Position numbers and translations under genes: made by a program. The notes beneath the pieces were generated by a model that made no database searches, was not told where the DNA came from, and worked only from the letters and a program-made list of their open reading frames with translations. From Synechococcus sp. UW140 (lineage in GTDB: Bacteria > Cyanobacteriota > Cyanobacteriia > PCC-6307 > Cyanobiaceae), in NCBI GenBank assembly GCA_943369245.1, contig CALRMN020000015.1, positions 916 through 64,915 on the forward strand: 64,000 nucleotides of DNA, read 5' to 3'. Of the stretch, positions 1 to 29,208 are shown piece by piece; the stretch's first letter is position 1; each line of letters starts with the position of its first letter.

Positions 1-264
1 AGCTGCAACTCCCTAGCGATAGCAAGACTGAGCGCGGAAGACTAGACTAAAATGAGGGAGGTGCGTCGCCTCTTAGCCCTTCACTCTAATGTAGGTTGCC
101 GAAACACCATCCGAGAGGTGGCATGAATCCTCAACAACAAGATGCCAACATGAGGATGCCAGAGCAGCACAGGCAAACCAAGGATCAGAATCAGGCATAC
201 GTCGCAGAAGCTACGCCATCAAGAGCTGACACGTGTTAAGATTAAATAGATATTGGATATTTGA

Positions 265-1134
265 ATGAGCGAAAACATCACAAGGCATGATCCCTTTGAG
301 TTAATCAAAGATCTGATTGGGTCGACATATGATCATGTTGTCTACATTCCTAATCCAGGTAACCTTGGCGATGCCCTAATCGCTGCTGCTACATTGCAAA
401 ACTTTGACTCTCATAGCATAAGCTACAAGATAGGCACAAAGGATATTATCTCCAAGGCCGAGCCTAGGACTCTCTACGTATATGCAGGAGGTGGAAACTA
501 CATTCCAATTTATCATGGCCTAAGAAGCTTTCTGGATTCACTCTCAGAAAGAAAGGAGACTATTGTAGTACTGCCACATTCCTCCTACGGAATGAATGAA
601 CACTTATGCACTTACGATGGGGAACTGCATTTCTTCTGCAGGGAGCTCAGTACATATGAGCGACTGAAAGGAGTCATCAGGAATGGAAGACTATATCATC
701 ACGATGACGTTGCCTTATCGTTCAATATTAAGGCCAAGGAGTTATTGCCCTATCATCGTTATCTTGAACTGGTAGCTCAACTTGAACCGCATGAGGCAAG
801 GCTCAATGCATTCAGGATGGACAAGGAGTCCAGGCTAAGGCAACATGCAAAAAGACTGGAAGCCAATTTCGATGTTTCCACGTACTATGATCCAAAGGCA
901 ATCAGATGGGGCAAACTTGATGAAGCCAGCCTATATGAACAGGTTAGCTGGTTGTTCACTTATCTTCATAGTTTTTCCGAAATACATACCGATCGCCTGC
1001 ACATAGCCATTGCTTCGCTCTTGGCCAACAAGAAAGTCGTTGCCTACGACAACGACTATGGAAAGGTAAGTAGTATTTACGAATACTCACTTAAGCCATT
1101 ATTCCCCGACCAAATCACAATGTCAACACTCTAA
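265..1134 (+). CDS. Polysaccharide pyruvyl transferase family protein
   Basis: N-terminal PNPGNLGDALI motif, YAGGGN, and C-terminal HTDRLHIAIASLL...VAYDNDYGKV, typical of pyruvyltransferases; low-GC codon usage. Confidence 0.85.
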   Translation: MSENITRHDPFELIKDLIGSTYDHVVYIPNPGNLGDALIAAATLQNFDSHSISYKIGTKDIISKAEPRTLYVYAGGGNYIPIYHGLRSFLDSLSERKETIVVLPHSSYGMNEHLCTYDGELHFFCRELSTYERLKGVIRNGRLYHHDDVALSFNIKAKELLPYHRYLELVAQLEPHEARLNAFRMDKESRLRQHAKRLEANFDVSTYYDPKAIRWGKLDEASLYEQVSWLFTYLHSFSEIHTDRLHIAIASLLANKKVVAYDNDYGKVSSIYEYSLKPLFPDQITMSTL

Positions 1135-1261
1135 CCGATGTCTAGTTATAATTGCTAGCAACAAACCACATAACTGTTATATCAGATGACATATTCAACG
1201 CCAGTTATTTACACAAAGGGCTCTCATGCTGTATTCTGTTGGGCATCTATGCAGTCAACAT

Positions 1262-2344
1262 CTACTTAACGAAATTCGTGAACAAAATATCTTGCATACT
1301 CTTAGTGGTGTTCAATACAGATCTATCAGGCTTGCCCCATTTGATCTCCATATTGCGCATTGACCAGCCTAGTCGTGTAGCTTCTGCTGATAGGGGGTCA
1401 AAATGTAGTTCGGCATTGAGATGAAACTGAATGAGTCCATAATCAGCAGGATCAGAGGAAAGCGAAACACTCGGATATGCTTTCTTAGCGGCATCAATGG
1501 CCAGCAACATGTTTTTCTTGGTGATTCGATACTTATAGCCTTTCCAGCCAAGCCATGGCTTCCCTTGATAGACATCAGATCCGGTCATCATATCGACACG
1601 CTTTGTTTGAGGCAGTAGAGGTGCATTGAACATGAAGTCACTGGTATCACGATCAACACGAACTGAACCTTCAATAGGTCGATCGTGTCGATGGAAGAAT
1701 AGCATCACATTAAATGTGAGTTCACCTCCAGACTTTTTATCGCGAAAGAGATAGTTAGCATTGACAAACGTCTTGCTCTTGGGGGAGCTACGATCTTCTG
1801 CGACTGGGACTTGCAAGTCAAATGATGACTGCAGAAACCCTTGAGAAGTCGAATAGATATAAACTGGTTTTGGAAAACGAATTACCGGAGTGATCATCAT
1901 TTTGTTACGATGAGATCCATTGGGTAGATCACTTGATGTAAGATATACGCCCATCACACTGCCCTGTAGTTGAACCATCGAACTACCGCAAGCATTACTG
2001 TAAGCCGACTGATACTTCGAAGCATTCCCTACAACTGACATTCCGGTAAGATGATAGGTTGCACGGCACGTATTTGGAATCATCAAGCCCATACTTTCTG
2101 GTGCAGGATTAGATTGCCATGATAGGATCTGAAAAGATCCTCGTGTTCTGGAATCGCGAACTTTCTTTGCCTGCTCTGAACTTGCTGGCGGTACAAGCAA
2201 ATAGTTTGATATCGGACCGGTTACGTATGGCTGCTTAAATAGCAGGACACTGCGACTGTCAGCAACGCGATAGCCAACCAAGGATAGGCTGACAAGCCCC
2301 AATGCACATACTTGGCCAAGCAACTTGATGCGTAGTTTTGGCAT
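1262..2344 (-). CDS. Hypothetical exported or membrane-anchored protein (360 aa)
   Basis: Long ORF in a low-GC region; basic-then-hydrophobic N-terminus (MPKLRIKLLGQVCALGLVSLSLVG); no family recognised. Confidence 0.65.
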   Translation of the reverse strand: MPKLRIKLLGQVCALGLVSLSLVGYRVADSRSVLLFKQPYVTGPISNYLLVPPASSEQAKKVRDSRTRGSFQILSWQSNPAPESMGLMIPNTCRATYHLTGMSVVGNASKYQSAYSNACGSSMVQLQGSVMGVYLTSSDLPNGSHRNKMMITPVIRFPKPVYIYSTSQGFLQSSFDLQVPVAEDRSSPKSKTFVNANYLFRDKKSGGELTFNVMLFFHRHDRPIEGSVRVDRDTSDFMFNAPLLPQTKRVDMMTGSDVYQGKPWLGWKGYKYRITKKNMLLAIDAAKKAYPSVSLSSDPADYGLIQFHLNAELHFDPLSAEATRLGWSMRNMEIKWGKPDRSVLNTTKSMQDILFTNFVK

Positions 2345-2579
2345 ACAGCTAACGCAGGAAAAACAGCTGAGTTAATGAAGTTTAAGTGCCTTAGGCTATG
2401 AACACCTCTCACATTGGCATTATTGACTCTGGCCATGATAGAGGGGACCAGCCAAGCGTCTGATTATAGGTCCTAGACAATCGACGTGGGTGAAAAGGAA
2501 TGCTGACTCAAGGATATACATCTTTAGATATTAGAACACGAGCCTAGTCAGAAAAGGTTGTGGCGAACAATTTAAACAA

Positions 2580-3326
2580 CTATGATGCTACAAAGTCTGA
2601 ATGGACTCGTGTGCCCTCAAGGCCAAGATGGTGTACCATGGGGGGAGTAATAGCGTAGGTATTCAGTATTCCCATGCTTGGAGGCCGAAGCTTACTGTGA
2701 TGGTCTTTTATTATTCTTTTTAGCTGCGAGTCACTGGAAATTGCATCTAATACACTTTGCGGTACAGAGTATCTCAATAGGCGGCCATCAATGTGACCAT
2801 AATATCCATCCACTGAGATCTGTTTGATCAGCTTACGTGCTCCTTGTTCTGTTACGAGATAACCATCTGTCCCAGAACCCTTTTTATGGCGTGTTTCAAC
2901 GAATTGAAGAATATCCTGTATCGAAATAACACGATATGAGTTTCCTCGCCCAGGGGGGGACATGCGGTTATTCAGATAAAGAAGATCCAAGTCATCTGGA
3001 TACTCTATAGTTTCCAGCGCCTCAAGACAAGATATTGCTATATCATCTTCAATAACAATTCCATATCCTTTCTTAGACGAAACAATTTGCTCCCAAATAT
3101 TCATATGAGACAAGAAGCAACCAACAGCTCCACGTCTTACCTCCCATGCAGTATCATCGAACAACAATCGCATGAGAGTGCGTGGAAGAGCTGATCCTAA
3201 TACTGCTGGAACAACAGTGATATTTAAGTTGGGAATATTTGTTAACTGCAGCATCATGCTTTCAAGCCTGTCCTTATCGCGTTCAAGATTAAGAAGATAG
3301 ACTTGAAGTGGATTGGTGAGTTTCAT
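2580..3326 (-). CDS. Glycosyltransferase family 25
   Basis: YLLNLERDKDR, GCFLSH, VIEDD and GTDGYLV motifs of GT25. Confidence 0.9.
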   Translation of the reverse strand: MKLTNPLQVYLLNLERDKDRLESMMLQLTNIPNLNITVVPAVLGSALPRTLMRLLFDDTAWEVRRGAVGCFLSHMNIWEQIVSSKKGYGIVIEDDIAISCLEALETIEYPDDLDLLYLNNRMSPPGRGNSYRVISIQDILQFVETRHKKGSGTDGYLVTEQGARKLIKQISVDGYYGHIDGRLLRYSVPQSVLDAISSDSQLKRIIKDHHSKLRPPSMGILNTYAITPPMVHHLGLEGTRVHSDFVAS

Positions 3327-3406
3327 TGGATGTAATTAACTTGAGCAAGAAGCTTTGAGACAATGGCTTTAGCTATAATTGAAGCAATAGGCATTGAAAT
3401 CTATTG

Positions 3407-4420
3407 TTAGGATATGTCCGAGGTAACAAGAGCCTCAATTAGTGACAGATAAGTGGACGGCCAGTCAGGCACATAAGAATCATCTAGTTTTGTGGTAACT
3501 GGTGAAGCTGGACTATGAATAGCAATGGCTTGGCTACCTAACAAGAATGTATTTACATAGTCAAGAATAGGCATATTATTCACAATATACGCAGACAGAA
3601 CTTCTTCTGGTATATAATAACTTCTAAGTTCAGGGGCTGAGGATGGTCTTTTAATCAGTTGGTTTCCAAGGACTCTACAGAGACTTCGGCCATTGTCGAG
3701 ACTTAATAGATTTTCCATCGCTTCCTGCTCATTTCTCGTTAACGAACGATTCTGGAGACGTGGAGAATGAACAGGCTTTAATGAAGGATTAAGAATATGA
3801 AAGAATCCATTCAACAGATCATGCTTTTCGTGATCAAAATTTTTGATTACTAAAGATGAGGCACCAAAGCATTCAGTGTATACATGGAGTGTGTTTCCAA
3901 AGGGAATTTTTGCTGAGCCGATATAGTCAAGAAGACTTCTTGGAGGATTTGAACCCGGATAAGCCGAGAAGCCAGTCTTTAGATGCTGTAGATACTCTGA
4001 GATTGAATAGTCAATTGCAGTTCTGACATAGAATATGATTCGGATGGAAAATAAAAGAGATTGAGCTATTGATAGAAGTCTATGAAGACGCTCGGGCCGC
4101 GCAAATTGAAGTGCTTCACTTGAGAATAAGACATCTTGTTGTCTATCAGCCGCTAAACTCAGGGTGATTGAAAGCCACTTCCACGCCTCATCTTCATCAA
4201 ATGTCTGTGGGTATCTAAAGCCTGGGTTAAGCAGCTTGGCTAGCGTGAAAGCAAAGCCACTGGCAACTCTGCCACGATATTCGATCGCAGCTGATTGAGT
4301 AGGATCAAGCGGAGCAGTTACTCCAATATCCAGCAGTGCATGCCGCATAAGTGGAATCGTAGCTTGTATCGATGTAGTCGCGGTTTTCCCTGCGCCAACA
4401 TGGAGAAAAAGCGTAGCCAT
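3407..4420 (-). CDS. Sulfotransferase-fold protein (polysaccharide-locus type)
   Basis: N-terminal LHVGAGKTATTSIQ (5'-PSB-like loop), LFSSEAL, IIFYVR. Confidence 0.7.
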   Translation of the reverse strand: MATLFLHVGAGKTATTSIQATIPLMRHALLDIGVTAPLDPTQSAAIEYRGRVASGFAFTLAKLLNPGFRYPQTFDEDEAWKWLSITLSLAADRQQDVLFSSEALQFARPERLHRLLSIAQSLLFSIRIIFYVRTAIDYSISEYLQHLKTGFSAYPGSNPPRSLLDYIGSAKIPFGNTLHVYTECFGASSLVIKNFDHEKHDLLNGFFHILNPSLKPVHSPRLQNRSLTRNEQEAMENLLSLDNGRSLCRVLGNQLIKRPSSAPELRSYYIPEEVLSAYIVNNMPILDYVNTFLLGSQAIAIHSPASPVTTKLDDSYVPDWPSTYLSLIEALVTSDIS

Positions 4421-4452
4421 AGTTGTTACTTAGTATGCATCAGTACTTCGGG

Positions 4453-5226
4453 TCAAAGGGTGATGTCCCATCGAGAGCAGGTTTCTGAGCAGATCTCCAT
4501 AAAGTGATGGGCTTGCTTTTCTCCAAGATTGATCTGGCTGAGAGGCTTATAGGCAGAATTCTCAATTGACTTGGTGAGCACGTCCTCTCGTGATCGGCTA
4601 GATAGAGCTACTGCATCCGTGATACAGCTCTCAGGAAGCTGCAGAAATTGGAAGAGCTTCGGTACCGCGCTGCCAGGATCAACTCGGAGTTCAAGCTGTG
4701 ACACGACATGAAGATCAGCCCCATAGGGGGAAGCCGCAAGCTTTTCGATACCACTCATCGCACCAACCCATCCCTCCGCTAATTGAACAGGATCAACATT
4801 ACCGGCGTCCCCTTCCCTGCTGCCGAATTTCTGAACAGCAGACTCATAGACTTCAACAGGACTACGCACACAAGCCACAAAACAAGCATTGGGGAAGATC
4901 GACTTCACGACAGCCCAGCCGTTGCAAGCTGTAGGGCCAGGGGTTTTGTCGATGAAACCTTCACCACCATAGGTCTGCAGATAGAACTCACGAAAGAATC
5001 TTATGTTGATGTCCTTGAGTGCATGCAGATCCAGCTCCTTGATGAGCTCTGTACCTGTAAAGTCTTTTCGACTTCTACAGAGATTGATCTGATGAATGAT
5101 GTGCTGCAAGAGTGGAGTGGTATGAGCCTCGCCATGGGATGGATAACCAGTGAATGTCCCAATGAGCTTGCCAACGAATGATGTTCCAGACCGTGGATAA
5201 CCGATGACAAAAATGGGTGCACGCAT
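4453..5226 (-). CDS. Sulfotransferase family protein
   Basis: IFVIGYPRSGTSF PAPS-binding motif, IDKTP, CVRSPVEV; start reassigned to the ATG at 5226 (MRAPIF). Confidence 0.85.
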   Translation of the reverse strand: MRAPIFVIGYPRSGTSFVGKLIGTFTGYPSHGEAHTTPLLQHIIHQINLCRSRKDFTGTELIKELDLHALKDINIRFFREFYLQTYGGEGFIDKTPGPTACNGWAVVKSIFPNACFVACVRSPVEVYESAVQKFGSREGDAGNVDPVQLAEGWVGAMSGIEKLAASPYGADLHVVSQLELRVDPGSAVPKLFQFLQLPESCITDAVALSSRSREDVLTKSIENSAYKPLSQINLGEKQAHHFMEICSETCSRWDITL

Positions 5227-5290
5227 GAATGGAAGAATCGCGAAGGAATGAAAACAAGTGTACTCACTATCTGGTAGGGCTAGTGCTGCA

Positions 5291-5965
5291 TCAAGTGGTA
5301 ATGGCAAAAAGGCTAGATACGGCCTTCAATCGTGTCGGCGTGACATGCTCTAAGGTAAGAAGTCTCTGGATGTCCATCAGAGCCTGCTTAGGAACTGGTA
5401 CTTGCTGCTGAAGCAAGGGAGCGGCCTCAGCCGCGAAACCATCGAAACAGGAAGTCTGAACATTCACTCCGGCCTGGCGGTAGAACTCCTCCAACCTTCT
5501 AAACGCTTCGCTCGGTATCTGCAGAAAAGCAGATGCCGGTGGAAGCAGTTTCGACCGGGTTGATTCCTCAGCCTGAATCCATTCCATGAGAGAGATGGTG
5601 GCCTCCAGGGCTTCTCGGATGCCGTTAACAGCTTCAATCAAATCTCCGGGTCCACCTTCGTCAATATTCTGAAAGCGAATTTGATCAATCTGTCTGGCAA
5701 TGCCATTCGAATCGACCAAAAGAATAACCGTGTCCGCACTCTCCGCAAGCTGCCTCCAGTAAGTTGGAGGATAGCGATATCCGATTACGAAGTGATGCTC
5801 ACTGCTGTCCAGCAGCTTCGTGATCCAGGCGCCGGGGTCTGCCTTATCGAGTTGTTGTGCTGGTGGATCGATGCACTGGTGGTTGTTGAGTTCAGCAAGC
5901 CGTTGCACGAAGCTGAAGAAGATCGAATCGATCCCCAGCGGTGCAGAAATAGTGAGATGGATCAT
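5291..5965 (-). CDS. Hypothetical protein (224 aa)
   Basis: ORF inside the operon; ATGA overlap with the upstream GT4 stop; no family recognised. Confidence 0.65.
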   Translation of the reverse strand: MIHLTISAPLGIDSIFFSFVQRLAELNNHQCIDPPAQQLDKADPGAWITKLLDSSEHHFVIGYRYPPTYWRQLAESADTVILLVDSNGIARQIDQIRFQNIDEGGPGDLIEAVNGIREALEATISLMEWIQAEESTRSKLLPPASAFLQIPSEAFRRLEEFYRQAGVNVQTSCFDGFAAEAAPLLQQQVPVPKQALMDIQRLLTLEHVTPTRLKAVSSLFAITT

Positions 5966-15977: not shown

Positions 15978-18857
15978 GTGCCGCTGAACCTGCCCCCGCC
16001 GTTGCAGGCCATGGCCCGCGGATCGGTGATCGGTGGGTTCGAGGGATTCGCTCCCGATGGCACCCTGGGCGGCTGGGCCTGCCCCCTGGCCGATCAGCCC
16101 GACGGAGCGCCCCCCCTGAGCGTGCTGCTCCAGGTGGAGGATCTGCTCAACCCCGGCCGCATCTGGAGTCTGGGAGCCGCGGAAGCCTCGCTGCCCCGCC
16201 CCGATCTCGTCCAGCAGGGGCTTGCCCGGAGCTGCGGCTTCGCCTTCCCGGGCCGCAGTGGCATGGAGATCCCCCCCCGCTCCACCGGCCTGGTGCTGCG
16301 CGCCCTCGTGCAGGGCGATCCCGCCGTGGAGCTGCCCGGAAGCCCCCTCCGCCTCGACGACGCCCGCTACCGGGCCCTCGAGCAGCTCGGCCGCCGCGCC
16401 GCCGGCCGCTCCGTGCGCCTCGACGCCCTGAGTGGCCCCTTCGTGGTGGGCTGGGCGCCCCCTGGCCAGGAGCTGGAACTGCGCCTCGATGGGGTGCCTG
16501 CCGGCCGGGCCAGCGCCAGGCCCGACGGGCAGTTCCATCTGCCCCTGCCCGCCGCCAGCTGCGATGGCCGTCCTCACCATCTCGCCATCCACGACGGCGA
16601 GGGGGTGCTGCGGGCCGAGAGCCTGGAGATCACCCCCTTCCAGCTCACCCCCTGGTCGGCCCTCCAGGACCATGGCCGGCCGCCCTTCCCCGACCAGCTC
16701 AACCCCCTGGCCCGGGAGCACCTCCGCAGCCTCACCACCTGGCTGCACTGGGCCGACACCCACGGCACCCCCCTGCCCGCCGACCTGCCCCTGCTGCAGC
16801 GGCTGCTGAGCGGACCCATCAGCCCCCCCGCCAACGCCGCCCCCGGCGAGGAGGCCGGGCCCCAGGGCGTGCCGGTGGCCCGCCAGCCGATCCACCTGCC
16901 GCTCAGCGCCGAACCCCTGGTGTCGGTGGTGGTGCCGGCCCACAACCAGTACGCCGTCACGCGCCGCTGTCTGGCCGCCCTGGCCTACGCCCCCACCCGC
17001 GTGCCCTTCGAGCTGATCGTCGTCGACGACGGCTCCTCCGACGGCACCGCCGAAGCCCTGAGCCGGGAGGCACCAGGCGTGCAGATGATCCGCCACGACT
17101 ACGCCCGCGGCTTCAACCAGGCCTGCCACAGCGGCGTGGCCGCCGCCCGCGGCAGCTTCATCGTGCTGCTCAACAACGACACCGAGCCCTGTGCCCTCTG
17201 GCTGGAGGAGCTGCTCGAGCCGTTCCAGCGCTGGCCCGACACCGGCATGACCGGCTCCCAGCTGCTCTATCCCGACGGACGGCTGCAGGAGGCCGGCGGC
17301 ATCGTCTGGGGCAATGGCGAACCCTGGAACTACGGGCGGGGGCGCAATCCCCATGAACCGGGCGTGAGCTACACCCGCCAGGTGGACTACGTGAGTGGTG
17401 CCGCCCTCGCCCTGCGGCGGGAGCTCTGGGGGCAGCTGGGCGGCTTCAGCCCTGAGTTCTCCCCCGCCTACTACGAGGACACCGATCTGGCCTTCAAGGT
17501 GCGCCAGGCCGGCCTGGTGGTGCGCTACGCCCCCCTCTCCCGGGTGATCCACCACGAGGGCCTCAGCTGCGGCACTGACACCAATCCCGAGACCAGCGAG
17601 GGCCTCAAGCGCTTCCAGACCCTGCATGGGCCCACGTTCCAGCGCAAGTGGCAGCACGCCTTCGAGGGGGAGAAGGAGCCCTCCTTCGAGGCCGCCGAGC
17701 GGATCAAGGACCGGGGCATCCTCGGCCGTGCCCTCTTCATCGATCACGCCACCCCACGCCCCGACCGGGATGCCGGCAGCCATGCCGCCCTGGCCGAGAT
17801 GGACCTGGTCCAGGCCCTCGGCTACAAGATCACCTTCCTGCCGGCCAACCTGGCCTGGCTCGGCACCTACACCGAGGAGCTGCAGCGCCGCGGCATCGAG
17901 GTGATCCATGCCCCCTTCGTGCTCTCCCTCGACCAGTTCCTCAGGGAGCGCGGCCGCGAATTCGACCTCATCTATCTCACCCGCTACACCACTGTGCGCG
18001 ACAGCCTGCCCCTGCTCAAGGAGCATGCCCCCCAGGCCCGGCTGATCTTCTGCAACGCCGACCTCCACTACCTGCGCGAGCTGCGCCAGGCCCAGAACGC
18101 CGGGCTCAGCGGCGAGCCCGGCGAAGCAGCCCTGGCCTCCGTGCGTGAAACCCGCCGCCAGGAGCTCGAGGCGATGGCCGGGGTCGACCTCACCCTCACC
18201 TACAGCGAGATCGAGCAGGCGGTGATCGCCGCCGAGACCCTCGGCCAGGCCGCCACCTCCCTCTGCCCCTGGGTGGTGGACCTGGTGGAACAGCCCTCAC
18301 CCCTGGTCAGCCGCAGCGGCATCACCTTCCTTGGTAGCTACCAGCACCCACCCAACCAGGACGCCGTGGAAAGCTTCCTCGGAGATGTCTGGCCCCTGCT
18401 GAACGAGCGTCTGCCCGAACTCGAGTTCCATCTCTATGGCAGCGGGCTGGGCCCCGAGCTGCAGGAGAGGTGGCAGTCCATCCAGGGGGTGCGGGTGCAC
18501 GGCTGGGTCACCGACGCCAGCTCGGTCTACGAGCGCCACCGGGTCTTCATCGCGCCGCTGCGCTCCGGCGCCGGCATCAAGGGCAAGGTGATCGCCGCCC
18601 TCGCCCACGGCATTCCCCAGGTGCTCAGCCCGGTGGCCGCCGAAGCCACCGGCTTGCGCCACGGTGCCGAGGCCTTCATCGCCCGCGAGCCCGAGGCCTG
18701 GTGCGCTGCCATCACCGACCTGATCGTCGACGACGGCCTCTGGAGCCGCACCAGCGAGGCCGCCCGTGACCACGCCCGGGCCCACTTCTCCCGCGGCCAC
18801 GGCCTCGATCTGATGGCCACCGCACTCGAGCGTCTCTCCCTGCCCTGCCGGCGATGA
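15978..18857 (+). CDS. Bifunctional GT2 + GT4 glycosyltransferase
   Basis: GT2: VSVVVPAHN, ELIVVDDGSSD, VLLNNDTE, LQEAGG, PAYYEDTDL. GT4-like: PDRDAGS, PPNQDAV, PLRSGAGIKGKVIAALAHGIPQV. GTG start. Confidence 0.92.
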   Translation: MPLNLPPPLQAMARGSVIGGFEGFAPDGTLGGWACPLADQPDGAPPLSVLLQVEDLLNPGRIWSLGAAEASLPRPDLVQQGLARSCGFAFPGRSGMEIPPRSTGLVLRALVQGDPAVELPGSPLRLDDARYRALEQLGRRAAGRSVRLDALSGPFVVGWAPPGQELELRLDGVPAGRASARPDGQFHLPLPAASCDGRPHHLAIHDGEGVLRAESLEITPFQLTPWSALQDHGRPPFPDQLNPLAREHLRSLTTWLHWADTHGTPLPADLPLLQRLLSGPISPPANAAPGEEAGPQGVPVARQPIHLPLSAEPLVSVVVPAHNQYAVTRRCLAALAYAPTRVPFELIVVDDGSSDGTAEALSREAPGVQMIRHDYARGFNQACHSGVAAARGSFIVLLNNDTEPCALWLEELLEPFQRWPDTGMTGSQLLYPDGRLQEAGGIVWGNGEPWNYGRGRNPHEPGVSYTRQVDYVSGAALALRRELWGQLGGFSPEFSPAYYEDTDLAFKVRQAGLVVRYAPLSRVIHHEGLSCGTDTNPETSEGLKRFQTLHGPTFQRKWQHAFEGEKEPSFEAAERIKDRGILGRALFIDHATPRPDRDAGSHAALAEMDLVQALGYKITFLPANLAWLGTYTEELQRRGIEVIHAPFVLSLDQFLRERGREFDLIYLTRYTTVRDSLPLLKEHAPQARLIFCNADLHYLRELRQAQNAGLSGEPGEAALASVRETRRQELEAMAGVDLTLTYSEIEQAVIAAETLGQAATSLCPWVVDLVEQPSPLVSRSGITFLGSYQHPPNQDAVESFLGDVWPLLNERLPELEFHLYGSGLGPELQERWQSIQGVRVHGWVTDASSVYERHRVFIAPLRSGAGIKGKVIAALAHGIPQVLSPVAAEATGLRHGAEAFIAREPEAWCAAITDLIVDDGLWSRTSEAARDHARAHFSRGHGLDLMATALERLSLPCRR

Positions 18858-19654
18858 GCACCACTCACCTCTCCGGTGTCAGGCCGCCCGCCCTGATCGC
18901 CATCTCCCCCCGCAAGCCCCTGCTCTCGGTGGACGAAACCAACCGCCTGCTGCGCCAGCAGGGGGTCTGCCTGGCCCTGGCCCAGGGGGTGGTGCTCGAT
19001 CGGGTCGTGCAGAGCATCAGCCTCAGCGACGACGAGGAGAATGCCCTGATGCGCGCCTACCTGGAGGGTGAAGGCGTCAAGGACGACCAGTCCCTGGCTT
19101 CCTGGCTGGCCCGCAAGGGCTGGTCGACGGCCGATCTGCGCTACTTCGCCACCAAGGCCGAACGGCTGCGTCGCTACAGCCAGGCCCGCTACGGCAGCGA
19201 AGCGGAGATCCGCTTTCTCGATCGCAAGCTCGATCTCGACCAAGTCACCTATTCCCTCCTGCGCGTCTCCGACCGCGACGAGGCCGAGGAGCTCTACCTG
19301 CAGCTGCGCGAAGGCGAGGCCGACTTCGCCGCCCTGGTGGCCGCCCATTCCGAGGGCCGCGAGCGCATCACCCGCGGCCTGATCGGCCCGATCGCCCTCA
19401 CCGCCGGCCACCCCAGCCTCACCGAGCGGCTGCGGGTGGGCAGCCCCGGCCAGCTCTGGCCGCCCTTCGAAGTGGCCGGATGGTGGCTGTTGGTGCGGCT
19501 CGAGCAGCGCTTTCCTGCTCAACTCGACGACGCCATGCGCGTCCGCATGGTGGACGAACTCTTCCAGGTCTGGTTCAAGGAGCAGGTGAGCCTGCTGATG
19601 GCCGGCGAAGACCTCATGCCCCTGCCCCGCGATCCCAACGCCCCGTCCGCATGA
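18854..19654 (+). CDS. PpiC/parvulin-type peptidyl-prolyl isomerase (T1SS-associated)
   Basis: VTYSLLRV, ADFAALVAAHSEG.E, GLIGPI, GQLWPPFEVAGWWLLVRLE; ATGA overlaps at both ends. Confidence 0.85.
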   Translation: MSTTHLSGVRPPALIAISPRKPLLSVDETNRLLRQQGVCLALAQGVVLDRVVQSISLSDDEENALMRAYLEGEGVKDDQSLASWLARKGWSTADLRYFATKAERLRRYSQARYGSEAEIRFLDRKLDLDQVTYSLLRVSDRDEAEELYLQLREGEADFAALVAAHSEGRERITRGLIGPIALTAGHPSLTERLRVGSPGQLWPPFEVAGWWLLVRLEQRFPAQLDDAMRVRMVDELFQVWFKEQVSLLMAGEDLMPLPRDPNAPSA

Positions 19655-22600
19655 GCACCATCCCCACCAGCCGCTCCGAACAACGCCAGAAGGCCCTGCT
19701 GGCCGGCGTCCGCCCCTTCGACCGCCTGCCCGCCGAGGTGCTGGCCGGTCTCGACTCCCTGCTCGACACCCGCCGCTACCGCCTCGGCCAGACCCTGCTG
19801 CGCCGCGAGAGCATGCCCGAGGGTCTGCTGCTGCTGCGCTCCGGCAGCCTGCGCGTGCTGGCCACCGACCCGCTCAGCGGTGATCTCACCACCATCGACC
19901 GGCTCCAAGCCGGCGCCTGCGTCGGCTGGTGTTCCCTGCTCAGCGGCGAGCCCTGCGAGCAGCTGCGCGTGTCGGCGGAGGCGGAGGTGCTGGTGCTGCC
20001 CACCGGCCTCTTCCACGACCTGCTCGCCGACCACGACGCCTTCCGGCTCTGGTACCAGACCACCCTGCCGGCCTCCGAGCTGCACCGGCTCCTGGTCGAC
20101 CTCCACAGCCAGAACCCCGCCTGGGCCGAAGCCCTGCGCGCCTGGCCCGCCATCCGCCCGGCGGCGCGGGTGCGCAGCCTCACCCCCTCCGACAAGGCCG
20201 ACGGCCCGCTCGCCCTCAGCGCCGAGCTCACCTGGTTCCACAGCAGCGGTGGTCCCCTCGGGCAGCCCTGGCCCATCGGCGGCAAGCCCGTGCCACCCCG
20301 TGCGGGTGCGCCCTGGCTGCGCCTGGTGGGGCTGCCGCCCCTTGACCAGCAGCCGGAAACAACCCCCGATCTGCAGATCGGCAGCGCGTCCGAAGCACCG
20401 GCCACCGAAGCCACGGCCCCGGACGCGGCGGCCTCCACCCCCGCTCCGCAGGCCGGGGCTCTGGCCCCCCCGCCGGCCCCGGGCAGCGGAGCGGGCACCT
20501 ATGCCCTCTCCCCGCCTGCGCCTGCCCCCCGCACGGATGGTCATGGCGAGGAGGCCGAGCTGCGCCTGCAGCGCGCCACCGGCCCCCGCGATGCTCCGAT
20601 CGCCGTCTGCATCGCCCTGGCCAACTACTTCGGCGTGCCGGTGAACCGCGATGCCCTGCGCGATCAGGTGCAGGCGGTTCTGGCCCGCCAGGGCAGCCTC
20701 AACCTGATCAACCTCGGCCAGATACTCGATGCCCTCGGGCTGCGGGTGGTGCTCACCAAGCTCCCCGCCGACCGCCTCGGCCGCGCCACCACCCCGGCCG
20801 TGTTCCACGCCCAGGGCCACTTCGCCATCCTCGAAGGCGTCGACGACGACGGGCGCCTGCGCCTGCTCGAACCCGAAATGGGCCCCCTGCTACTGCCGCC
20901 GGGCCAGCTCGCCGGCGACGGCGACGACGGGGTGGAGCTGCTGCTGCTGCAGCGCAAGAGCGACGCCAAGGAACAGACCTTTAGCTGGGGCTGGTTCCTG
21001 CCCTTCCTGCGCGAGCACCGCCGCCAACTGGTTGAAGTGGTGGCCCTCTCCTTCGTGATCAACCTGCTGGCCCTGGCCCAGCCACTGGGCCTGCAGGTGC
21101 TGATCGATCAGGTGGTGCGCCAGCGCAACGTCAACGCCCTGCTCACCATCTGCTTCGTGATGCTGCTGGCGGCCCTGGTGGCGGCCGTGCTCAAGACCCT
21201 GCGCGGCTACATCTTCACCGACACCGCCAACCGGGTGGACCAGGCCACCAAGAGCACCATCCTCGATCACCTGGTGCGGCTGCCCCAGGGCTTCTTCGAC
21301 AGCCGGCCGGTGGGCCAGGTGATGTTCTACTTCGGCCAGCTCGACAAGCTGCGCGACTTCCTGCTCGGCAACAGCCTCACCACCGTGGTGGATCTGGCCT
21401 TCAGCTTCCTCTACCTGTTCGTGCTGTTCGCCCTCAGCGTGCCGCTCACCTTCGCCACCCTCTCAACCCTGCCGCTGTTGCTGGCCCTCGCCTTCTTTAG
21501 CAACCCGCTGGTGCGCGCCCAGATCAAGCGCAGCATGGGCGCCTCGGTGAAGACCTACTCCTACCTCAACGAATCAATCACCGGCATCCAGACGATCAAA
21601 TCCCAAAACGCCGAACTGAAAACCCGCTGGGAGTTCCAGAACCGCTATGCCCGCTTCATCGGCGAAGACTTCAAACTCAAGATCACCAAAGAGACTATTA
21701 CCAATCTTGCAAATTTTATCAATGACCTAAACAGCCTGATCACGATTGGAGTAGGTGTCTATCTTCTCATTCAACAAGAGGCAACGATTGGTGGATTCAT
21801 CGCTTTCAGAATTCTTAGTGGTTACATTACCCGTCCTCTGGTACAGCTAATTACCACCTGGCAGACGTTCCAGCAGTGCACCGCCTCGATCCAGCTGGTG
21901 GCCGACGTGGTCGACCGCCCCACCGAGCAGAGCGACGCCGAGGCGCTCAACATCCCGATGCCGCCCCTCAGCGGCCGGGTGGAGTTCCAGAACGTGAGCT
22001 TCCGCTTCGCCGACGACGGCCCCCTCGTGCTCCAGGGCATCAACCTGGAGGTGCCTGCCGGATCCTTCGTGGGCATGGTGGGAGGCTCCGGCAGCGGCAA
22101 GAGCACCCTGCTCAAGCAGCTGCCCCGCTTCTACCGGCCGCTCGAGGGCAAGGTGGTGATCGATGGCCTCGACATCAACAAGGTTGAGCTCTACTCCCTG
22201 CGCCGCCAGATCGGCGTGGTGCCCCAGGACAGCGTGCTCTTCGACGGCACCGTGCGCGAGAACCTGCTGCTGGTGAAGCCCGACGCCACCGCCGACGAGA
22301 TGATCCGCGCCGCCCGCATCGCCTGCGCCCACGATTTCATCATGGAACTCCCCAAGGGCTACAACTCCGATGTGGGCGAGCGGGGTGCCGGTCTCTCCGG
22401 CGGCCAGCGCCAGCGCCTTGCCCTTGCCCGCGCCGTGCTCCAGAACCCCCGCATGCTCATCCTGGATGAAGCCACCAGCGCCCTCGATGCCCGCACCGAA
22501 CGCCAGGTCTGCATCAACCTCTTCGAAGCCTTCCGCGGCCGCACGGTGTTTTTCATCACCCACCGCCTCAGCACCGTCCAGCCGGCCGACTGCATCGTGA

Positions 22601-22710
22601 TGATGGACAAGGGCGCGATCATGGAGACGGGCAGCCACCGGGAGCTGATGCAGCGCCAGGGCTGGTACTACGCCCTCCATTCCAGCCAGGGTCAGGAGGG
22701 AGGTCTCTGA
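19651..22710 (+). CDS. hlyB: Type I secretion ABC transporter (HlyB family): cNMP-binding domain + C39-like domain + TMD + NBD
   Basis: Walker A GGSGSGKST, VVPQD Q-loop, signature LSGGQRQR, Walker B LILDEATSALD, FITHR; N-terminal CAP_ED-like segment; ATG at 19651. Confidence 0.93.
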   Translation: MSTIPTSRSEQRQKALLAGVRPFDRLPAEVLAGLDSLLDTRRYRLGQTLLRRESMPEGLLLLRSGSLRVLATDPLSGDLTTIDRLQAGACVGWCSLLSGEPCEQLRVSAEAEVLVLPTGLFHDLLADHDAFRLWYQTTLPASELHRLLVDLHSQNPAWAEALRAWPAIRPAARVRSLTPSDKADGPLALSAELTWFHSSGGPLGQPWPIGGKPVPPRAGAPWLRLVGLPPLDQQPETTPDLQIGSASEAPATEATAPDAAASTPAPQAGALAPPPAPGSGAGTYALSPPAPAPRTDGHGEEAELRLQRATGPRDAPIAVCIALANYFGVPVNRDALRDQVQAVLARQGSLNLINLGQILDALGLRVVLTKLPADRLGRATTPAVFHAQGHFAILEGVDDDGRLRLLEPEMGPLLLPPGQLAGDGDDGVELLLLQRKSDAKEQTFSWGWFLPFLREHRRQLVEVVALSFVINLLALAQPLGLQVLIDQVVRQRNVNALLTICFVMLLAALVAAVLKTLRGYIFTDTANRVDQATKSTILDHLVRLPQGFFDSRPVGQVMFYFGQLDKLRDFLLGNSLTTVVDLAFSFLYLFVLFALSVPLTFATLSTLPLLLALAFFSNPLVRAQIKRSMGASVKTYSYLNESITGIQTIKSQNAELKTRWEFQNRYARFIGEDFKLKITKETITNLANFINDLNSLITIGVGVYLLIQQEATIGGFIAFRILSGYITRPLVQLITTWQTFQQCTASIQLVADVVDRPTEQSDAEALNIPMPPLSGRVEFQNVSFRFADDGPLVLQGINLEVPAGSFVGMVGGSGSGKSTLLKQLPRFYRPLEGKVVIDGLDINKVELYSLRRQIGVVPQDSVLFDGTVRENLLLVKPDATADEMIRAARIACAHDFIMELPKGYNSDVGERGAGLSGGQRQRLALARAVLQNPRMLILDEATSALDARTERQVCINLFEAFRGRTVFFITHRLSTVQPADCIVMMDKGAIMETGSHRELMQRQGWYYALHSSQGQEGGL

Positions 22711-24203
22711 TGGCCAACAGCAGCGAGTCCTCCGGGTCTCTGGTCGACCTCTACGAGCGCGCCCTCGGCTGGCTGCGCTCCCCCCGCCGTCACCGGCCCC
22801 GCCGGGATCAGCGGGTGGTGCCGGTCCGCGTCGACCTGGTCGGCGACAGCCCCCCCCCAGCATCGGTTCCGGAGCCGGTGAACCATCCATTTCTGACTCC
22901 CGCCGCACCGGCTGACGCTGGCTCAGGCAGCCAGGGCGCCCTCGCCCCCCTCGCCACCGCCGACTGGCAGTTCAACCAGCCGGTGCTGCTGCGCAAGAGC
23001 GGCCGAGCCTCCAGCCTGATCGTCTGGACGCTGCTCGGTGGTGTGGGCGCCATCGGCGTCTGGGCCGTTCTGGCCCCCCTGGGTGAAACCATCGCCGTGC
23101 AGGGCAAGCTCCAGCCCGGCAGCAAGGTCAAGACGATCGAGGCGCCCGTGCCCGGTGTGATCGAAGCCGTGCTCGTCAAAGACGGCGAAAGCGTCCGCCA
23201 GGGACAGGAGCTCATCCGCTTCGATCTGCGCGAGACCCGCAGCCGCCTCACCGCCGCCGAGGCGATCCGCGAACGGCTGCTCAACGAGAACCAGATTCTC
23301 GCCGCCTCCCTGGGCGACACCCAGGCCAGCGGCCTCTCCGCCAACCAGCGGCTCCAGCTCAGCAACCAGAGCGAGGATCTGCGCACTAGGCGCCTGGCGG
23401 CCGACGAACAGCTGCGGGCCAGCGAGGCCCGGATCGCCGGCCTGCGCACCAGCCTGGCCACCGCCCGCAACATCGCCGAACGCTTCGAGGCGCTCGCGCG
23501 CAGCGGCGCCGTCAGCGAGGTGCAGGCCCTCGAGAGCCGCAACAAGGTCAATGAGATAGAGGCCAACCTCGCCAGCGAGGAGCGCACCGCCGCCAGCCTC
23601 AGCGCCTCGGCCCTCAACGCCGGTGCAGCCCCCGGCGCCGACCTGCGCGGCCGCATCGAGGCCAACCTGCGCCAGATCGCCGAACTCGACAGCCAGATCC
23701 GCCTGGCCCGGGTGCAGCTCCAGTACAGCGTGCTCACCGCCCCCAGCGCCGGCTCCGTCTTCGACATCGACGTCTCCCCCGGCTCGGTGGTGGAGAGCGC
23801 CAAGACACTCCTGCGGGTGGTCCCCGGCGATGCGCTCGAAGCAAAAGTGTTCATCCCCAACGATGTGATCGGCTTCCTCTCCCCCGGCCAGAGCGCCGAG
23901 ATCTCGATCGCCACCTTCCCCTCGTCCGAGTTCGGCAGCGTGCCCGCCACGGTGGAGCGCATCGGCTCCGATGCCCTCACCACCCAGGAGATGGCCGAAA
24001 CCCTCCAGACCGACGCCCAGGGCCTCTTCTATCCCGCCGTGCTGCAGCTGCGCCGCCAGAGCCTCCAGGGCAGCACCCGCCCGATTCCACTCAAGCCGGG
24101 CATGGCCCTCTCCGCCGACATCCAGCTCCGCCAGCGCACCTTCATCAGTCTGTTCACCAGCTTCCTCAACGACCGCCGCAAAGACCTCGAGCGCCTGCGC
24201 TGA
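22710..24203 (+). CDS. hlyD: HlyD-family membrane fusion (periplasmic adaptor) protein
   Basis: Single TM helix, IEAPVPGVIEAVLVKDGESVRQGQEL lipoyl-like motif, coiled coil, LTAPSAG, FPSSEFG, LKPGMALSADI. Confidence 0.92.
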   Translation: MANSSESSGSLVDLYERALGWLRSPRRHRPRRDQRVVPVRVDLVGDSPPPASVPEPVNHPFLTPAAPADAGSGSQGALAPLATADWQFNQPVLLRKSGRASSLIVWTLLGGVGAIGVWAVLAPLGETIAVQGKLQPGSKVKTIEAPVPGVIEAVLVKDGESVRQGQELIRFDLRETRSRLTAAEAIRERLLNENQILAASLGDTQASGLSANQRLQLSNQSEDLRTRRLAADEQLRASEARIAGLRTSLATARNIAERFEALARSGAVSEVQALESRNKVNEIEANLASEERTAASLSASALNAGAAPGADLRGRIEANLRQIAELDSQIRLARVQLQYSVLTAPSAGSVFDIDVSPGSVVESAKTLLRVVPGDALEAKVFIPNDVIGFLSPGQSAEISIATFPSSEFGSVPATVERIGSDALTTQEMAETLQTDAQGLFYPAVLQLRRQSLQGSTRPIPLKPGMALSADIQLRQRTFISLFTSFLNDRRKDLERLR

Positions 24204-24490
24204 TGGCCCGGCGCCCCACCCGCGAACCGGTGGCCGACTGGTCGGCCTATGTGCCCCCCGGCCGGCGCCGCAGCCTGCTGCTGAAGCGGGCCTGCCACCG
24301 CTTTCGCTCCAGCCTCGCGAGCCAGAGGGTGCTGATCACACTGATGGTGCTGATTTACCTGGCCATCTGCCTCGGCCTCATCCTCTGGGGAGGGCTCAGC
24401 CTCGGTGTGCTGGCCCTGCTGCCCCTCCTGCTCGGCCCTCCCGTGGGCTATCTCGCCTACTGGCTGGTCTGGCGGGAGTTCCACGAATGA
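24203..24490 (+). CDS. Small two-TM membrane protein
   Basis: Two hydrophobic helices, ending LAYWLVWREFHE; TGATG overlap with hlyD. Confidence 0.7.
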   Translation: MARRPTREPVADWSAYVPPGRRRSLLLKRACHRFRSSLASQRVLITLMVLIYLAICLGLILWGGLSLGVLALLPLLLGPPVGYLAYWLVWREFHE

Positions 24491-24529
24491 ACTGAACTCC
24501 CAGCCCGTGCGCCCAGCTGGGGCCGGAAC

Positions 24530-25675
24530 TCAGCCCTGCTGGCTGGCCCGGCCCCGCAGTGTGGTGAGTTCCTGCAGCAGCCACTCGGGCAGAACCTTCT
24601 CGGCCGAGCTGAGGTTGACTTTGTTGGCGGGGTAGTAGAGCAGCGCCGCCATCAAAGCGTTCAGGGCGCGGGGATGGCGCATCGAGGTCACGATCTCCCC
24701 CAGCCGACGGCGGGCGGCATCCTCCTCGGCGGGCATGGCCTCCCGGCTGAATCCCGAGCCGATCAGGTTCTGGCTGAGCTGGCCGAAGGGGGCCCGGTAG
24801 AGGGTCTCCAGGTTCTCGGGTTCCACATCCAGCCAGATCTGCGCCACCTGCCGCCGCAGCACGGCCAGTTCGCGCTTGAGTTCGGCGTCGGTCGGATCGA
24901 TCGCGTAGAGGTTGATCAGGCCGCTCATCCGGCCCAGGAATTCGTTGTCCTGGATCAGGGGCAAGCAGGCCTCTCCCCGCTTCTCGGAGAACAGGGGCAG
25001 GGGCCTGTTGTCGGCCGGGGAGGAGGGGGAAGCAGGGGCCAGTGCAGGGACTCCACCGGCGGCGGTGGAGCCGGTGCCGCCCTGCTGCCTCAGGCGCAGT
25101 TTCTGCAGCAGCTGGGGATCGCAGCGCTCGGCATAGTCGCCCAGCAGCCACTTCGGGATCTGCCGCAGCGGATCAGCCACCTTCATGGCGTTCCGGTCGT
25201 AATAGGGCATCACGGCCAGCAGCAGATTGGGAGTCTCGTGATGCTCGAAGGCCTTGAGCAGCCGCTGGCTCAGGCCTGCCTTCCAGCGTTCATCGATGGG
25301 CCGCAATGGAAGAGCAGGCAGCACGCCACGCAGCATCAACCTGTAGGCCTCACCGATCGGCCCGCTGTAGAGGATCTCCAGACAATCCACCGGAGCGCTG
25401 AGCCAGAAGCGGGTGAAGCAGGAACGCGCGGCCTGGGCATCCTGCACGGCCTGCTGGTTGGGGGATTGGTCGAGTTGAGTGAAGATCGTCTGCAACCGCC
25501 GCACCGACCAGGCGGTGATCTCCATCGGCAGTTCGATCTCGTCCTGGGGGCTGCTGCTGACCAGGCGGTTGACGGACAGAGCCACGGCGGCAGGGACCGG
25601 CTCCAGGTCCGGCTCGGACGTCTGTCGCCCATGGGAGTGGCTGCCGCGACCGAACAGACTGCGCAGGGAAGGCAT
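24530..25675 (-). CDS. Hypothetical helical protein with an internal two-fold duplication
   Basis: Repeats FWLSAPVDCLEILY / IWLDVEPENLETLY, LLLAVMPYY / LMAALLYY, IPKWLL / LPEWLL. Confidence 0.75.
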   Translation of the reverse strand: MPSLRSLFGRGSHSHGRQTSEPDLEPVPAAVALSVNRLVSSSPQDEIELPMEITAWSVRRLQTIFTQLDQSPNQQAVQDAQAARSCFTRFWLSAPVDCLEILYSGPIGEAYRLMLRGVLPALPLRPIDERWKAGLSQRLLKAFEHHETPNLLLAVMPYYDRNAMKVADPLRQIPKWLLGDYAERCDPQLLQKLRLRQQGGTGSTAAGGVPALAPASPSSPADNRPLPLFSEKRGEACLPLIQDNEFLGRMSGLINLYAIDPTDAELKRELAVLRRQVAQIWLDVEPENLETLYRAPFGQLSQNLIGSGFSREAMPAEEDAARRRLGEIVTSMRHPRALNALMAALLYYPANKVNLSSAEKVLPEWLLQELTTLRGRASQQG

Positions 25676-25756
25676 CGAAGTGCGCGGGCGAAAAATCTGC
25701 GTGAACTGTACCGACGTTTTTCAGGACTTATGTTGTATGCAAGACAGCCGCGGTCG

Positions 25757-26986
25757 ATGCAAGACCTGCTGATCCATCAGGCATTCCCGGCCCAGTTCCT
25801 GCCCATCGTCGAGTCCCTGCTGGCGGCTGGCCATGAGGTCCATGCCATTGGTGCCGATGGGGCCGCCGCGCTGCCGTCCGGCTGCCGGTTCCACCCTTAC
25901 GAGGCTCCCGCGGCGGAACGGCTGCCTCCCGGCCTCAGCGATCCGGGGCTGGAGAGCGCCCTGATCCGCGGCGAGAGGGTGGCGGACCTGGCCCGGTCCC
26001 TGAAACAGAAGGGTCTTGAGCCACGCCTGATCCTGTTCCACAGCGCCTGGGGCGAGGGGCTCTACCTGCGTGAGCTCTGGCCCGATGCGCTGCTGGTCAC
26101 CTATCCGGAACTGTTCGGCTCCGAGTCCCTGCTCGGAACCGCCGATCCGGACACCCCGCCCCTCAGCGACGGGCGCCGCCGCCTGCTGGTGCGCAACAAC
26201 CTGATGGCGCTCTCGGCCCTGGCCGCCGCCGACGCCGCCCTCACCCCCACCCTCTTCCAGCGCGACAGCTTTCCGGCCCCCTGGCGCGGCCGCTTCCAGG
26301 TGATCCACGAAGGGATCGACACCGCCAGCCTGCGTCCGGCCCCGCCGCGGGGCCTGCGCCTCGGCGCCGACCTGGTGCTGGCTGCCGACGTGCCCCTGCT
26401 CACCTTCGTGAGCCGCAACCTTGAGCCCCTGCGCGGGTTCTGCCGCTTCATGCGGGCCCTGCCGTTCCTCCTTGGTAACCACCCCGATCTCCAGGTGGTG
26501 ATCGTGGGGGGGCACGGCCACACCTACAGCCCGCCCAGCCCACATCCCGACGGCTACCTGGGCGCCATGGTCGAACTGCTGGGCGATGGCATCGATCGAC
26601 GGCGGTGTCATGCCGTGGGCCAGCTGCCTCGTGATCAGCTCACTGCCCTGCTGCAGCGCAGCACTGTGCACGCCTATCTCTCCCATCCCTACGTGCTCTC
26701 CTGGAGCCTGCTGGAGGCGATGGCCTGCGGAGCGGCCGTGGTGGCCTCCGACACGGCGCCGGTGCGAGAGGTGATCCGGGACGGGGTGAATGGTCGCCTG
26801 GTGCCCCTCGACAATCCGGCCGGGATCGCCGCGGGCCTCGATGCCCTACTGCGCGACCCGGAAGCCCGGCGCTCCCTCGGCCAGGCAGCCCGGGCCACCG
26901 TGCTGGAGCGCTACCGCCGTGATCGCTGCCTGGAGGCCTTCAACCGCTGGATCGAGTCGCTGCTGCTGCTGCGCTCCAGCCGCTGA
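25757..26986 (+). CDS. Glycosyltransferase family 4 (HQxFPxQF type)
   Basis: LIHQAFPAQF, HSAWGEGLYL, VIHEGIDT, FVSRNLEPLRGF, PYVLSWSLLEAMACG; ATG at 25757 in frame. Confidence 0.9.
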   Translation: MQDLLIHQAFPAQFLPIVESLLAAGHEVHAIGADGAAALPSGCRFHPYEAPAAERLPPGLSDPGLESALIRGERVADLARSLKQKGLEPRLILFHSAWGEGLYLRELWPDALLVTYPELFGSESLLGTADPDTPPLSDGRRRLLVRNNLMALSALAAADAALTPTLFQRDSFPAPWRGRFQVIHEGIDTASLRPAPPRGLRLGADLVLAADVPLLTFVSRNLEPLRGFCRFMRALPFLLGNHPDLQVVIVGGHGHTYSPPSPHPDGYLGAMVELLGDGIDRRRCHAVGQLPRDQLTALLQRSTVHAYLSHPYVLSWSLLEAMACGAAVVASDTAPVREVIRDGVNGRLVPLDNPAGIAAGLDALLRDPEARRSLGQAARATVLERYRRDRCLEAFNRWIESLLLLRSSR

Positions 26987-28256: not shown

Positions 28257-28657
28257 GGGGTCTGTGGTCACCAGCGGAGCACAGCGCGGAGCCTGCTCCA
28301 AACGAGACCCAGCATGGCTCTGTCAGGAGAGGCCGACCTGGATCTTCATCCATAAGCAATACTTATGAAGCATTCTCTTTCTCATTAAGCGATGTGTCGT
28401 TAGCTGCATTTTCCAAGAGGTATTTGTATTCGACGAGTCGTTTCAGCGTCAATTCTGAGCGATGGGACACACGCCAGTCACAACCTGTCGCAGGCCGAAT
28501 TCGCTTACCAAGTAGCATTCAATACATGATGCATGTGCTTCTCGCGAGTCTCTGCTTGCAACGGAACGACAGATCCAGACAACTCTGGTAGCTTTCGGTG
28601 ACTCGGGAATCCATTCCGGATTTCAACTTCACCTGAGTTCAATCTCACTCTGAAGCC

Positions 28658-29113
28658 ATGCCTACTACCCTGTCCATCAGCGGCGGTTATTCGAAATTTC
28701 TAGAGAGGCTCGAAGACCGCTTTGAAGATGCACCCCCTTCCTTCAAGGAAAAGCTCGGTGTCTTCGGCGAAAAAATCGAAAATTCCATTGACTTTTTACA
28801 GGACAGAGTCGACCAAAATGACGATCTGATCATTGGGGACAAACTCGGCGAGGAGATTTTCACCAAGCTCAACAAGTTTTTCCCTAACGGCGAAGAATCC
28901 ATTGCCCTTGGCATCGATTTCCTGAAGTCAGAGCCTGCGCCAAGCGATTTCCCGGAAGTTACAGATGTCATCGACTCTGTTTCTCCAATCGTGTTCGGCT
29001 CCACCGAGGAAACCGGCGGCGGTGGATCCGACCTTCTTGGTCTTCTCGATCAACTCCCTGGTAATGACAATCTTGGTCCGCTCGACGATTTCTTCCCAGG
29101 TGGACGGAACTGA
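28658..29113 (+). CDS. Small acidic protein with C-terminal RTX-like nonapeptides; candidate T1SS substrate
   Basis: 151 aa, about 31 D/E versus 12 K/R, no Cys/His/Trp, no signal peptide; GGGGSDLLG and QLPGNDNLG near the C-terminus; followed by a terminator. Confidence 0.75.
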   Translation: MPTTLSISGGYSKFLERLEDRFEDAPPSFKEKLGVFGEKIENSIDFLQDRVDQNDDLIIGDKLGEEIFTKLNKFFPNGEESIALGIDFLKSEPAPSDFPEVTDVIDSVSPIVFGSTEETGGGGSDLLGLLDQLPGNDNLGPLDDFFPGGRN

Positions 29114-29160
29114 CCCTCAGGTTAGATTCACGCCCAGCTTTGACTAATTGAAGAGCACCG

Positions 29161-29192: not shown

Positions 29193-29208
29193 CTTAGGCA
29201 GCGGCGAA

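Follow-up and report, generated by a model that had tools for sequence, protein, structure and literature searches.

A sharply bounded AT-rich patch of about 170 bp in an exporter gene of Synechococcus sp. UW140 is probably a short homologous-recombination tract of the gene-conversion type, derived from a functional copy of the same gene with a low G+C content at third codon positions (GC3). The gene, predicted to encode a HlyB-type ATP-binding cassette (ABC) exporter, lies in a 64,000-nucleotide stretch of contig CALRMN020000015.1 (hereafter the window, whose numbering is used throughout). An earlier note, made from the letters of this DNA, had attributed the patch to import by intragenic recombination. 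Four observations support such an import: the dip in GC3 occurs in 0 of 64 orthologues, substitutions specific to this genome are clustered 18-fold in the tract, saturation of synonymous sites is confined to it, and simulation excludes mutation in place. The gene and the limits of the tract are as follows.

19651..22710, + strand: gene of the predicted HlyB-type ABC exporter, 1019 aa, defined by Pfam, a match to HlyB in the PDB, orthologue starts and the GC3 profile.
21622..21674, + strand: left junction block, 53 nt, with zero genome-specific substitutions; encodes ...RYARFIGEDFK.
21675..21866, + strand: outer limits of the putative foreign tract, set by genome-specific substitutions.
21686..21854, + strand: core of the putative foreign tract, 169 nt, with 56 differences (33%) from Synechococcus sp. 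CBW1107 and GC3 of ~0.4; maximum chi-square partition.

The composition of the patch agrees with the earlier description. A GC content of 41% had been claimed for 21691-21860, and an exact count gave 70 of 170 (0.412). The exporter gene beside the patch has values of 0.654 (21000-21559) and 0.676 (21861-22700), and a profile in 150-nt windows reaches its minimum of 0.41 in the patch. The A/T-ending codons reported between GC3-rich flanks were also found. GC3 falls from 0.9-1.0 to 0.33-0.47 between ~21670 and 21850 and then returns to 0.95-1.0; the patch as a whole is T-rich with a GC3 of 0.42. The reading frame is open throughout, as stated, and the quoted patch peptide is correct. Codons that account for less than 10% of their synonymous family in this genome make up 26 of the 60 codons in the patch vs 30 of 959 elsewhere in the exporter gene, and an index modelled on the codon adaptation index has a value of 0.23 for the patch and 0.77 for the remainder of the gene. 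We scanned the whole ~3-Mb genome in 50-codon windows with high-GC3 flanks in long, high-GC3 open reading frames (ORFs). The patch has the lowest GC3 (0.36) of all 276,152 such windows, the 0.01 percentile being 0.52. The earlier note had also placed the beginning of a milder shift near 21560. The sequence does show this shift (0.51 GC). However, it recurs in all seven close orthologues (0.46-0.54), and its source is a conserved peptide rich in K, N, I, T and S. It therefore lies outside the foreign tract.

Comparison with orthologues showed that the tract is specific to this genome. The dip was present in none of the 64 orthologues compared, which comprised seven close ones, including CBW1107, and 57 further ones from the GTDB species set. 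GC3 at the patch position ranges from 0.43 to 0.98 across the 64, and all members of the host's own clade have values of 0.85-0.97. The nearest relative for the exporter is CBW1107 (92% amino acid identity). Nucleotide identity to CBW1107 is ~0.95 in both flanks vs 0.65-0.72 inside the patch. The two sequences differ at 57 of 191 nt inside vs 6.4% of positions outside, and 40 of the 57 differences are A or T here and G or C in CBW1107.

The tract limits were then defined in two ways. A recombination test, as the earlier note had proposed, was run as a two-breakpoint maximum chi-square partition against CBW1107. It placed the core at 21686-21854 with a chi2 of 186 vs a maximum of 47 in a null of 300 permutations, and across this segment divergence from CBW1107 rises from ~5% to 33%. 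We also counted genome-specific sites, at which three close relatives (L003, L044 and L045) are mutually identical and this genome is different. The 192 nt of 21675-21866 contain 42 such sites, and the remaining 2022 nt contain 30 (odds ratio 18.6, Fisher p 6e-28, permutation p <= 5e-5). The first such site downstream of 21866 is at 22156, 290 nt further on. Upstream, the RYARFIGEDFK peptide encoded by the left junction block is invariant across 58 sequences, and this block (21622-21674) is a likely crossover zone. Both edges of the tract are thus fixed to ~20 nt and lie beside invariant peptide motifs, FIGEDFKLK on the left and TWQ.FQ on the right.

The differences in the tract are mainly synonymous. 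In a Nei-Gojobori comparison with CBW1107, the proportions of synonymous (pS) and nonsynonymous (pN) differences are 0.81 and 0.142 in the patch, vs 0.14-0.15 and 0.012-0.022 in the flanks. Patch pS is 0.74-0.84 against each of the seven close orthologues, and pN/pS stays low. Saturated synonymous sites that are confined to the tract appear to reflect a different coalescence time, indicating a separate history for this segment and not altered selection. In the 55 kb that are syntenic with CBW1107, identity drops below 80% in ten peaks of divergence, and the exporter patch is the only one of them with a shift in GC (0.39 vs 0.57).

Could the tract have been rewritten in place, by AT-directed mutation or repair limited to it, or by selection for AT-rich DNA or RNA such as an internal promoter or a translational pause? 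Two observations speak for such rewriting: 41 of the 57 changes from the clade consensus are from GC to AT, and one weak promoter-like site is present on the antisense strand (21722-21694). However, the other 16 changes are not of this type, and transitions and transversions are mixed (33/24). We simulated AT-directed mutation in 20,000 trials, each with as many changes as were observed. A stop codon arose in 86% of the simulated tracts, and the stop-free ones carried at least 22 amino acid changes (mean 30) vs 13 observed. Residues used by orthologues made up 69% of the real replacements and 29% of the simulated ones, and no stop-free tract (14% of the 20,000) reached either observed value. 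Moreover, neither an Rfam match nor flanking repeats were found for the tract, and no relative has such a feature. Rewriting in place is therefore extremely improbable. Synonymous saturation, the conserved protein and the failure of the in-place simulation together argue that the tract evolved for a long time in a working gene under AT-biased codon usage.

Other local origins were considered as well. A search for an embedded RNA or mobile element in the tract gave no Rfam match and no notable direct or inverted flanking repeats. The internal promoter was rejected, the single weak antisense consensus match being what is expected of AT-rich DNA. A diversity-generating retroelement was also rejected: the genome contains no template repeat, the tract matching only itself, and the changes are not adenine-specific. 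The lack of a second tract copy in the genome likewise rules out such an element.

It is also very unlikely that the patch is an assembly or polishing chimera, in which ~170 bp of the contig would come from reads of a co-occurring relative with low GC. In favour of this reading, the allele is known from a single assembly. Against this, a chimera requires two frame-preserving switches within 170 bp. In addition, an orthologue with low GC3 along its whole length would have no k-mers of 21 nt or more in common with the host flanks, because the synonymous sites are saturated. A graph path through the patch would therefore need real molecules that join flank and patch, which implies that the mosaic exists. 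Contamination of the assembly is 0.41%, and the assembly holds neither an alternative high-GC allele nor a leftover contig.

Several results weigh against import from another copy, and the first group concerns the donor. Among 401 genomes of the family, the best match to the patch has 71% nucleotide identity. The best match in the GTDB species set (185,579 species, searched with back-translated peptides) has 69% nucleotide and 81% amino acid identity. A patch-restricted search of 5.8 billion protein clusters reached 79% amino acid identity at best, and a search of metagenome contigs 62%. Viral contigs and the phage and plasmid collections, the latter two searched with blastn, gave zero matches to the patch. 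No donor was thus found in any of these collections, and the exact exporter protein is recorded in one assembly only. Recombination that depends on RecA is expected to be inefficient with a partner that is ~30% divergent. The trees are a further point on this side. The patch protein tree keeps the UW140 sequence in its own clade, with CBW1107 and three metagenome-assembled genomes (support 90/76), and an approximately unbiased test does not reject the flank topology, in which UW140 pairs with CBW1107 (p 0.33-0.58, with just 61 columns in the patch).

The same trees provide information about the donor. The terminal branch to UW140 is 12 times longer in the patch tree than in the flank tree (0.166 vs 0.014). 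The patch pN relative to CBW1107 (0.14) equals that between CBW1107 and relatives that are ~75-80% identical overall. A patch protein within the host clade and a pN of 0.14 suggest that the donor was a fairly close orthologue with radically different codon usage, and family lineages with GC3 of 0.43-0.58 at the patch site exist in the 57-orthologue set. The low-GC donor of the earlier note therefore stands in part. A copy with low-GC codons is supported, and a distant low-GC organism is not, as the tract groups with the host clade.

We propose that on the terminal branch to this strain, ~170-190 bp of the resident exporter gene would have given way to the corresponding segment of a different functional copy of the gene, one long shaped by AT-biased codon usage (GC3 ~0.4). 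The donor may have been an unsampled, lower-GC lineage within or sister to the same picocyanobacterial clade. Alternatively, it could have been a gene copy on low-GC flexible DNA, such as an island, plasmid or phage. The DNA could have entered by transformation or transduction, or the exchange may have been an ectopic conversion within the cell. The tract has kept its own codon usage, with no drift toward that of the host, which makes the event young compared with the divergence from CBW1107-like strains.

Ectopic conversion differs from our proposal in the vehicle alone and can be viewed as a variant of it. A second, low-GC exporter copy, on an island or plasmid and present in the past or on unassembled DNA, would have converted the resident tract. 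The window also contains low-GC DNA of a similar kind.

96..5829, no strand assigned: low-GC island with glycan-decorating genes (pyruvyl transferase, GT25, sulfotransferase), minimum GC 0.34.

The codon usage of the island (GC3 0.33-0.47) matches that of the patch (0.42). The island is not syntenic with CBW1107, synteny beginning at 9232, and a 3.2-kb piece of it matched nothing at the DNA level among 400 family genomes. Ectopic conversion is also consistent with the split of the assembly into 28 contigs and with the tract protein belonging to the host's own clade. On the other hand, searches of the assembly with DNA and tblastn found no second copy of the exporter or the tract; the tract matches only itself, and the sole other match is a paralogue with 38% identity. 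Completeness of the assembly is 99.98%. We consider this route rather unlikely. In the same region, a weaker extension of the island reaches ~7815, and several of the ORFs have no Pfam match. A second short low-GC stretch (28276-29006, minimum 0.43) lies over a 151-aa ORF at 28658-29113, and only 320 nt of it align with CBW1107, at 71.5%.

The position of the patch in the transporter raises the question of its function. The exporter has, in order, a cyclic-nucleotide-binding domain, a C39-like domain, a six-helix transmembrane domain (TMD) and a nucleotide-binding domain (NBD). The Pfam scores are 2.1e-9 for cNMP_binding, 4.8e-5 for Peptidase_C39, 2.3e-32 for ABC_membrane and 1.9e-32 for ABC_tran. 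The Peptidase_C39 match covers profile positions 14-112 with 23.6 bits vs a cut-off of 22. Residues 323-1007 match E. coli HlyB (PDB 7sgr/8dck; E 4e-135), and the alignment of the TMD with HlyB residues 137-453 is gapless. With TMD and ABC ATPase in one polypeptide and a HlyD gene adjacent, the protein can be assigned, on sequence, to the HlyB-type ABC exporters of type I secretion systems. The order of C39-like domain, TMD and NBD and the neighbouring HlyD-family gene are shared with HlyB-type exporters that have an N-terminal C39-like domain, such as E. coli HlyB (7sgr/8dck) and PCAT1 (4ry2). The UW140 exporter differs from these in its cyanobacterial architecture, with an additional cyclic-nucleotide-binding domain at the N terminus and a linker rich in Ala and Pro.

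The earlier note had assigned the patch to the last transmembrane (TM) helices, and the alignment agrees with this, the patch being gapless against E. coli HlyB residues 369-430. In an AlphaFold2 model, it forms the end of TM5, a turn and the start of TM6, with local confidence (pLDDT) of ~81-87.

21604..21771, + strand: TM5 codons, modelled helix 652-707 (AlphaFold2 model); the tract covers the last two-thirds.
21772..21786, + strand: periplasmic TM5-TM6 turn QQEAT, aa 708-712 (AlphaFold2 model and column table).
21787..21915, + strand: TM6 codons, modelled helix 713-755 (AlphaFold2 model); the tract lies in the first half, with host codons from ~21855.

In related type I exporters, TM6 lines the cavity and TM5 and TM6 form the dimer interface (review PMC8277102), so the location of the patch is functionally interesting. 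The earlier note had suggested, as a possibility, that the import retuned the substrate channel, in step with the low-GC glycan genes, so that it would accept a new substrate or glycan. In that case, the imported TM5-turn-TM6 hairpin would have been selected as an adaptive cassette, fitting the channel to a cargo or glycan gained with the neighbouring genes. The cavity-lining position of TM6 and the dimer interface are consistent with such a swap. So are the match in composition between patch and island and the variability of the hairpin, which exceeds that of every other part of TMD and NBD in all 57 orthologue comparisons.

The replacements themselves argue otherwise. Sixteen residues of the patch differ from CBW1107; 12 of them are used by other orthologues at the same column, and most are conservative (T/S, D/E, L/I). 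Four residues are unique to this genome (Q709, A711, I734 and T739), and two of these, Q709 and A711, are in the turn. All columns that are invariant across orthologues are retained. Seven replacements in TM5 (residues 679, 682, 684, 688, 692, 695 and 698; 21685-21744) are spaced three to four residues apart and so occupy one helix face, and this face consists of columns that are variable across all orthologues. In addition, pN in the tract is far below pS, and no donor or co-transferred gene connects the patch to a cargo or to the island. Because most replacements already occur in orthologues, the invariant columns are kept and the hairpin is the most variable part everywhere, retuning of the substrate channel is not supported, and a selected cassette swap is unlikely. 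The tie to the glycan genes holds for composition (GC3 0.42 in the patch vs 0.33-0.47 in the island genes) and goes no further. Under our proposal of a short recombination tract, the effect of the import on the protein would be close to neutral, and its main phenotype would most likely be slower local translation through the 26 rare codons.

A broader version of the adaptive idea is more speculative still, and we regard it as distinctly improbable. In this scenario, the island genes of the clade would also exist as low-GC variants on flexible DNA (islands, plasmids or phages), forming a permanent and as yet unsampled reservoir from which short cassettes are swapped into resident genes. The hairpin would then be a preferred exchange module that changes with a fast-turning cargo slot and the nearby glycan genes. 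If true, the sequence of the channel would be tied to cargo turnover.

The mechanical ORF of the exporter opens at 19480 and closes at 22710 on the + strand, but the translation start is likely the ATG at 19651, which overlaps the stop codon of the upstream peptidyl-prolyl isomerase (PPIase) gene; orthologue starts and the GC3 profile point to this position. The 57 codons of the mechanical ORF ahead of it (19480-19650) have a GC3 of 0.15-0.4, because they overlap the PPIase gene in another frame. Downstream of the exporter lies its putative partner.

22710..24203, + strand: gene of a HlyD-family membrane-fusion protein (Pfam HlyD_3, 8.8e-20); overlaps the exporter stop codon.

This gene has a host-like composition (GC3 0.90), and the operon is flanked by glycosyltransferase genes. 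The genome comprises 2.99 Mb with 65.7% GC.

Other segments of the window also diverge from CBW1107. Peaks that have no GC shift are located at 22782-22982, 24382-24632, 24932-25157, 26707-26982, 27382-27657 and 27932-28357. They have 64-78% identity in 150-nt windows and include the 5' end of the HlyD gene. These peaks may be recombination tracts from high-GC relatives, or segments that evolve fast. At 16180-16193, just within the 5' end of a GT2-GT4 fusion gene, CBW1107 has ~1.67 kb extra, and the flanking alignment blocks overlap by 14 nt in the window. Over the secretion locus (16180-29216), CBW1107 is the closest relative, with 90-94% nucleotide identity, and Cruz-7E5 reaches just 73-75%. 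For a gene of an AcrB-like transporter of the resistance-nodulation-division (RND) family elsewhere in the genome, Cruz-7E5 (~98%) is nearer than CBW1107 (~95%). This shift of the nearest relative along the genome points to frequent recombination among these strains. The RND gene (contig C8, 34383-34520) also has a GC3 dip, to 0.27-0.53 over 40-45 codons. Two relatives with 87-97% nucleotide identity have the same dip, and a third has it in weaker form; the dip was thus inherited and did not arise as a parallel case. It may represent an older import whose codon usage is approaching that of the host.

For freshwater or estuarine picocyanobacteria, the exporter patch represents a clean, well-bounded case of recombination over a very short tract between copies whose codon usage is opposite. 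Within this group, such recombination has so far been described mainly for photosystem genes and their phage copies. The finding has practical consequences, as a single-gene phylogeny of the exporter or a scan of codon usage would be skewed by 170 bp. It also suggests that a low-GC gene pool, absent from public genomes and metagenomes, supplies this genome with whole genes, as in the glycan island, as well as with fragments of genes. There is no hint of a new mechanism or a new function in the patch.

The variable regions of diversity-generating retroelements are likewise short, sharply bounded, hyper-divergent in-frame tracts in one gene. Unlike their targets, the exporter tract lies mid-gene in a membrane domain, has no template repeat and shows mixed substitutions. 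The classic mosaic genes, penA of Neisseria and pbp2x and pbp2b of Streptococcus, arose by homologous recombination between diverged alleles or species. The exporter resembles them in having an in-frame block within a native gene, a sharp, several-fold jump in divergence that is mainly synonymous, and flanks that keep the species phylogeny. It differs from them in that the block is very short (~170 bp) and more divergent (33%), switches codon usage and has no evident donor or selective agent. A parallel in the same bacterial family is provided by psbA and psbD: in marine Synechococcus and Prochlorococcus and in their phages, patchy %G+C in these genes marks recombination within them (Zeidner et al. 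2005; Sullivan et al. 2006, PMC1484495). There, too, short intragenic segments of deviating G+C were read as recombination between a high-GC host gene and a lower-GC copy. The lower-GC partners of psbA are known phage copies; for the exporter tract, no phage, plasmid or cellular partner was found, and an ABC exporter, unlike psbA, is not known as a phage auxiliary gene. Unusual only in that it is short, sharply bounded and without a donor found, the exporter patch is otherwise an ordinary mosaic gene and a new instance of a known process.

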